The notes under the pieces: generated by a model
Database searches by the model: none
Seen by the model: the letters and a program-made list of their open reading frames with translations, nothing else
What the model was told of the DNA's origin: nothing
Position numbers and translations under genes: made by a program
Assembly: GCF_003334405.1 (NCBI RefSeq)
Contig: NZ_QOWM01000008.1
DNA: 64,000 nucleotides
Reading direction: 5' to 3' (one strand)
Source of the DNA: Escherichia coli
Lineage (GTDB): Bacteria > Pseudomonadota > Gammaproteobacteria > Enterobacterales > Enterobacteriaceae
In this document: one piece after another, positions 61,125-61,225 of the stretch
Position numbering within the stretch: the first letter of the stretch is position 1
Layout: every line of letters begins with the position of its first letter

Positions 61125-61225
61125 TGCATCAAGGCGGCAAGTGAGCGAATCCCGATGAGCTTACTCAGGTAAGTGATTCGGGGGAGCGAACGCAGCCAAG
61201 GCAGAGGCGGCTTGAAGGATGAAGT
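61125..61225. repeat. ERIC/IRU-like intergenic repeat between puuR and puuC
   Basis: aagtgagcgaatcccgatgagcttactcaggtaagtgattcgggggagcgaacgcag resembles the ERIC core (gtgaatccccaggagcttac / gtaagtgactggggtgagcg). Confidence 0.5.

Follow-up and report, generated by a model that had tools for sequence, protein, structure and literature searches.

The window analysed here is a 64-kb stretch of Escherichia coli DNA in which puuR and puuC follow one another in the same orientation, both genes being reported as members of the puuDRCBE operon (PMC9397018). The spacer between them runs from 61059 to 61332, puuR having its last base at 61058 and puuC its first at 61333, so that the length of 274 bp given in an earlier sequence-only reading of this DNA is correct. 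That reading had called the spacer long for an operon-internal gap and had placed an ERIC-like repeat in it. The gap is made up of a 149-bp ancestral spacer, conserved across Escherichia species and carrying hairpins of its own, and a 125-bp insertion; ERIC thus accounts for 125 of the 274 bp, whereas the other 149 bp are present without it. The 2,501 bp around the element are base-for-base identical to positions 1361000-1363500 of E. coli K-12 MG1655 (NC_000913.3), and a literature search for puuR together with ERIC returned nothing relevant. The features of the locus are collected in Table 1. Elsewhere in the window, Rfam comparison gave a full-length match to the enterobacterial sRNA STnc180 (34088-34290, + strand, 198 bits against a gathering score of 50) and the tryptophan operon leader (RF00513; 21557-21650, - strand, 93 bits), the latter fitting the K-12 map position of the window.

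Table 1. Features of the puuR–puuC region, in window coordinates
Feature	Position	Strand	Details
puuR CDS, gene upstream of the spacer	60501..61058	+	
GC-rich hairpin, 17 nt past the puuR stop	61075..61099	+	-15.6 kcal/mol, z -2.4
Full-length ERIC/IRU element, 127 bp including both flanking TA	61104..61230	+	MG1655 1362514-1362640
Target dinucleotide TA, left copy of the duplication	61104..61105	.	Empty versus filled allele
Left terminal inverted repeat TATACAC	61104..61110	+	Kept in 5 of 6 family copies; pairs with 61224-61230
Central core stem-loop CCCGAUGAGCUUAC-UCAG-GUAAGUGAUUCGGG	61150..61183	+	MFE structure; target region of the ERIC1R/ERIC2 primers
Right terminal inverted repeat GTGTATA	61224..61230	+	7 bp; pairs with 61104-61110
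Target dinucleotide TA, right copy of the duplication	61229..61230	.	Empty versus filled allele
Small hairpin CGGGC-atacg-GCCCG, puuC-proximal, outside ERIC	61254..61268	+	Folds; T-rich run follows on the - strand
puuC CDS, gene downstream of the spacer	61333..62820	+	Start checked by translation

The repeat was first placed at 61125-61225, where ERIC sequence is indeed found, but this range covers only the interior of the element. Its true limits, 61104 and 61230, were set by alignment to empty sites and by the end of homology between copies. Over all 127 bp it is 79-85% identical to five other E. coli ERIC copies (at a T6SS locus and in queA-acpH, rhlB-gppA, yeiL-psuT, and hsdM-hsdR); the alignment to the family that had been proposed as a check thus spans the whole length, at 79.5-85% over 127 bp, and the presence of an ERIC-like repeat in the puuR–puuC spacer is borne out by homology from end to end. 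With the 127 bp as query, blastn found 47,671 places over the full set of 5,426 complete E. coli genomes, every one of which was hit (range 2-16 places, median 10); further copies are present in records from Salmonella, Klebsiella, Citrobacter, Rahnella, and Yersinia. The 64-kb window holds no second copy.

Searching the window with the ERIC-PCR primers at up to 3 mismatches gave no match. Counted by hand, the puuR–puuC copy departs from the two standard primers at 4 and 5 positions, which is why searches at that threshold missed it. The majority consensus of the six copies aligned in this analysis, on the other hand, holds both GTGAATCCCCAGGAGCTTACAT (the ERIC1R complement) and AAGTAAGTGACTGGGGTGAGCG (ERIC2) exactly; both primer sequences appear together in 233 papers of the literature searched. 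Some of the divergence of the puuR–puuC copy comes from the central stem, where both sides have changed together (CCCGA...TCGGG for CCCCAG...CTGGGG), as they also have in the rhlB-gppA copy. The + strand of 61104-61230 corresponds to the ERIC2-primer orientation and is also the sense strand of the puu operon.

What is found here is therefore a length of about 127 bp, homology to the consensus and its core, a palindrome with terminal inverted repeats, the signature of a mobile element, and copies dispersed over the genome. Judged by these sequence features, 61104-61230 is a complete ERIC/IRU copy of textbook kind, carried by the E. coli reference genome. The family has been known since 1990-91, and its K-12 copies are already catalogued; Wilson & Sharp 2006 and the K-12 genome paper presumably list the one between puuR and puuC. 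As a kind of feature it is known and ordinary, and it matters little beyond annotation.

The element is an imperfect palindrome, and RNA read from its + strand is predicted to fold as one long hairpin at -52.5 kcal/mol. Its shuffled versions reach -29.9 +/- 3.4 kcal/mol (z -6.7), and 0 of 200 fold as well. The minimum free energy structure holds 43 pairs, at -51.7 to -52.5 kcal/mol. When the six copies are compared, 11 of the 42 pairs predicted have changed on both sides with pairing kept. Paired changes in the core stem stand at alignment columns 61/87 and 62/86. The sense strand folds better than the antisense strand (-52.5 against -37.1 kcal/mol), an asymmetry that recurs in five of the six family copies.

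The history of the insertion can be read from its presence and absence. A junction query made of the last 200 bp of puuR and the first 200 bp of puuC was run with megablast against 5,426 complete E. coli genomes and found the puuR–puuC junction in 4,370. The site is filled, with ERIC between 25-bp flanks, in 2,794 of these, and empty, with a 149-bp spacer, in about 1,576 (~36% of the puu-bearing genomes). K-12 derivatives, ATCC 8739, and O104:H4, O111:H8, and O26 strains are among the filled genomes, whereas O157:H7 is an example of the empty site. The filled copies are near-invariant, 2,790 of them being at least 99% identical. Spacer length, whose comparison across strains had been suggested as a second check, is thus polymorphic in strains and relatives alike, at 274 bp with ERIC and 149 bp without it. 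Separately, the junction match was absent in 1,036 of the 5,426 genomes, and the puu locus seems to be missing or very divergent in about a fifth of E. coli strains.

Two empty alleles occur, namely AATC-CA-TAAAG in roughly 1,000 genomes, including O157:H7, and AATC-TA-TAAAG in roughly 490 (e.g., strain 181.1). Set against the TA-empty allele, the filled allele AATC-TA-[123 bp]-TA-TAAAG amounts to a 123-bp element plus an exact duplication of TA; with the 125 bp of 61106-61230 taken out, the spacer would read AATCTATAAAG at the junction. An outgroup scan that used the PuuR C-terminus and one genome per species recovered the 149-bp empty spacer in E. albertii, E. whittamii, Escherichia sp. E1V33, and two other E. 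coli-like records, and a version of 163-164 bp, also without ERIC, in two species of Pseudocitrobacter. Since E. albertii, E. whittamii, E1V33, and Pseudocitrobacter are all empty, the insertion is derived within E. coli, and the allele comparison shows it to have arisen within the E. coli lineage that includes K-12, O104:H4, O111, and O26.

By the same comparison, the CA empty allele is the ancestral one. With CA at the site in all outgroups and in the commoner of the two empty alleles, the insertion needs a prior C-to-T change, or else TA is an excision product; the TA empty allele is thus either the state before insertion or what excision left behind. Within 380 bp to either side of the site, K-12 differs from the TA-empty haplotype at 13 positions and from the O157 haplotype at 9. 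TA-empty is therefore no closer to K-12 than O157 is, which argues that it is not a recent excision from a K-12-like allele. A paralogue of the local copy at more than 85% identity was found neither in the 5,426 E. coli genomes nor, at full length, in PLSDB plasmids or a phage collection. That an insertion younger than the species should have no such paralogue may point to a donor copy that was lost or foreign.

Other sequences have entered the same region. In Raoultella terrigena, Enterobacter sp. 10-1, and Enterobacteriaceae RIT693, the puuR–puuC spacers measure 284-305 bp (L014, L020, and L029) and hold other palindrome-rich insertions in which blastn finds no ERIC; the spacer has thus been a landing site more than once. 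Outside the spacer, IS1 interrupts puuC at about codons 5-7 in the diarrhoeal E. coli isolate E1739 (L003, 996-1763), with a 9-bp duplication CATCTGGCT at the equivalent of 61345-61353 in the window.

The remaining spacer has structures of its own on either side of the element. A GC hairpin had been pointed out just after puuR, and the one in Table 1 does fold with the energy given there. It is found in all empty alleles and is conserved in E. albertii, E. whittamii, and Escherichia sp. E1V33. It is older than ERIC and independent of it, since every empty allele has it, and ERIC landed 4 nt downstream. The REP tail consensus served for motif comparison: on the - strand of this hairpin lies a REP-like tail motif, CTTACCCGGCTTAC, which occurs once in the window. 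By blastn, a 36-mer of the hairpin is single copy per genome, and the annotation of NC_000913.3 holds no repeat feature at 61075-61099. A 'REPv112a-b' is listed for the puuDRCBE operon without coordinates (PMC10100675), and a 'REP112' was not found in the supplement of that paper. We therefore word the likeness narrowly: the hairpin is REP-like only by the tail motif on its - strand. A degenerate REP-like sequence, GCCAGATGCGGCG....CGCTTTATCCGGACAAC, lies further off at 55949-55982 on the + strand and may be the 'REPv111' listed for puuP (PMC10100675).

Across genera, the hairpin directly after the puuR stop differs, and in the more distant ones it often has a T-rich tail. It reads GCCGGG..CCCGGC in E. 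coli and, with such a tail, GGCCTGAG..CTCAGGCC in Citrobacter and Enterobacter; other genera differ again. In this comparison, the post-puuR region (61059-61103) is one in which structure is kept and sequence replaced. The puuC-proximal part (61231-61332), on the other hand, is conserved across genera, including a block TTATCTGAT that precedes the ATG by about 25 nt. The stem of its small hairpin changes with pairing retained, from CGGGC/GCCCG in E. coli to CAGGG/CCCTG in Citrobacter and CAGGA/TCCTG in Enterobacter. Maciag et al. mapped a puuCBE start site, dependent on sigmaS, in vitro (PMC3141248), and the puuC-proximal conserved region may be that of this promoter. ERIC sits upstream of it, in the least conserved linker of the spacer, a position that fits an insertion tolerated rather than recruited.

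What would such an element do within an operon? The sequence that follows it directly is ATAAAGAATG, and no T-run comes after the hairpin; a scan of the + strand from 60900 to 61450 gave no terminator-like site, and no sigma70-like promoter site was found inside the element. Each of the six frames through the element has stop codons, which rules out a coding role. Read-through of puuDRCBE would transcribe the element in its better-folding orientation, and the transcript would then form an imperfect hairpin of 127 nt, 45 nt behind the puuR stop. With neither a T-run nor a promoter-like site, the element should neither end nor start transcription.

Taken as a whole, the best explanation, to which we give a probability of roughly 0.9, is that a complete ERIC/IRU element was inserted at a TA dinucleotide and is co-transcribed as a hairpin, likely as a near-neutral passenger. 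For its role on its own our estimate is less firm. That the element would be a co-transcribed, near-neutral passenger in the puuDRCBE mRNA is somewhat better than an even bet, and we favour it because more than one third of the puu-bearing E. coli genomes, as well as all outgroups, do without the element. Next in likelihood, at around one chance in three, would be a structural barrier or processing site that modestly alters, up or down, the stability of the puuD-puuR mRNA relative to puuCBE; an effect on mRNA stability had also been suggested in the sequence-only reading. Both gradings are estimates.

The strongest competitor to the near-neutral passenger regards ERIC as a working cis-regulatory RNA, with its hairpin hindering 3' exonucleases or offering RNase E or RNase III a target; in carrier strains, puuD-puuR mRNA would then be uncoupled in level from puuCBE mRNA. 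We consider both parts of this proposal tentative and on balance unlikely. It can draw on the very stable hairpin in sense orientation, on a strand asymmetry typical of the family, on a stem kept through paired changes, and on the 2,790 filled genomes at 99% identity or above. Precedent comes from Yersinia: according to reviews, ERICs there alter the level of the upstream transcript in an orientation-dependent manner, via an RNase E site (De Gregorio 2005, as summarised in PMC2229807, PMC3184786, and PMC10969869). Yet about 36% of the puu-bearing E. coli genomes and all outgroups manage without ERIC, near-invariance is expected from recent common descent anyway, and paired changes are equally expected if the inverted repeats are needed at the DNA level for transposition.

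A bolder form of the cis-regulatory idea, to which we lend little credence, is that the presence or absence of ERIC works as a natural regulatory switch that shifts the survival of puuR repressor mRNA against that of puuCBE mRNA. If this were true, putrescine catabolism would be tuned differently in filled strains (K-12, O104:H4, O26, O111) and in empty ones (O157:H7). The empty and filled alleles with their TA duplication form a clean, natural, and engineerable pair for testing what an ERIC hairpin does to operon expression, an effect that has so far been studied by experiment mainly in Yersinia.

That the element is an intrinsic terminator or attenuator, partly stopping transcription between puuR and puuC, is improbable. 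A strong hairpin between two operon genes would suit it, as would the description of puuCBE as a separate sigmaS-dependent unit (PMC3141248). Nevertheless, the hairpin is followed by AUAAAGAAUGUCG rather than a U-run, the scanned + strand is devoid of terminator-like sites, and long imperfect hairpins of 127 nt are atypical of intrinsic terminators. The partial termination between operon genes that the sequence-only reading had in mind is accordingly disfavoured by the missing T-run.

Still less probable is that the element is the gene of a small RNA akin to Vibrio AS5, transcribed on its own. Rfam has no family under the name ERIC, and the element aligns end to end with the Vibrio antisense RNA model V_AS5 (RF02818; model positions 1-129, E 3e-8), which speaks for such a gene. 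The score of 44.8 bits, on the other hand, is far under the gathering score of 96, so that it falls short of the membership threshold, and the element is without promoter-like or terminator-like sites. The match is a resemblance and not a membership; it is best read as a sign that the Vibrio RNA itself would lie on an ERIC-type repeat.

The last proposal, a REP/BIME-type or chance palindrome instead of ERIC, might lean on the REP-like tail of the adjacent hairpin and on the 'REPv112a-b' entry for puuDRCBE (PMC10100675), but it is refuted for the 127-bp element by the counts of homologous copies and by full-length alignment to ERIC copies and not to REP, the REP-like hairpin being separate, older, and present in empty alleles, and chance being excluded by the shuffles (0/200) together with the number of homologous copies.

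How, then, does the puuR–puuC copy compare with known systems? V_AS5 shares an alignment of sequence and structure over its whole length, but apart from its sub-threshold score, it comes from another genus, and here there is no sign of a transcription unit of the element's own. The REP/BIME elements of E. coli are, like the local element, intergenic and palindromic; they are co-transcribed, as the local element would be, and have been implicated in mRNA stabilisation. A REP is a palindrome of about 35 bp with conserved head and tail motifs and hundreds of copies per genome; at that size, and with a sequence unrelated to the 127-bp element, REPs stand apart from it.

Closer are the mRNA-modulating ERICs of Yersinia enterocolitica, which belong to the same family and likewise lie between co-oriented genes, with a co-transcribed hairpin expected. 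In the 2005 work of De Gregorio and colleagues, the destabilising Yersinia ERICs reportedly overlap or adjoin stop codons, and more distant ones are said to be possibly stabilising. Compared with these reportedly stop-adjoining copies, the local element stands off from the puuR stop by 45 nt, a stretch that includes another hairpin.

The closest match is the family itself, the ERIC/IRU/RU-1 elements of the Enterobacteriaceae, reportedly described by Sharples and Lloyd in 1990 and by Hulton and colleagues in 1991. ERICs are MITEs that end in TA on both sides, carry 7-bp terminal inverted repeats, and generate a target-site duplication (PMC2229807 Table 1; PMC3184786). The local element shares with the family the length of 127 bp, the imperfect palindrome, the conserved core, the 7-bp inverted repeats, and the TA duplication; it, too, is located inside an operon, in a gap between genes, and is one of multiple dispersed copies. 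Nothing essential differs: the local core diverges from the consensus, and it does so partly by paired changes in the stem.
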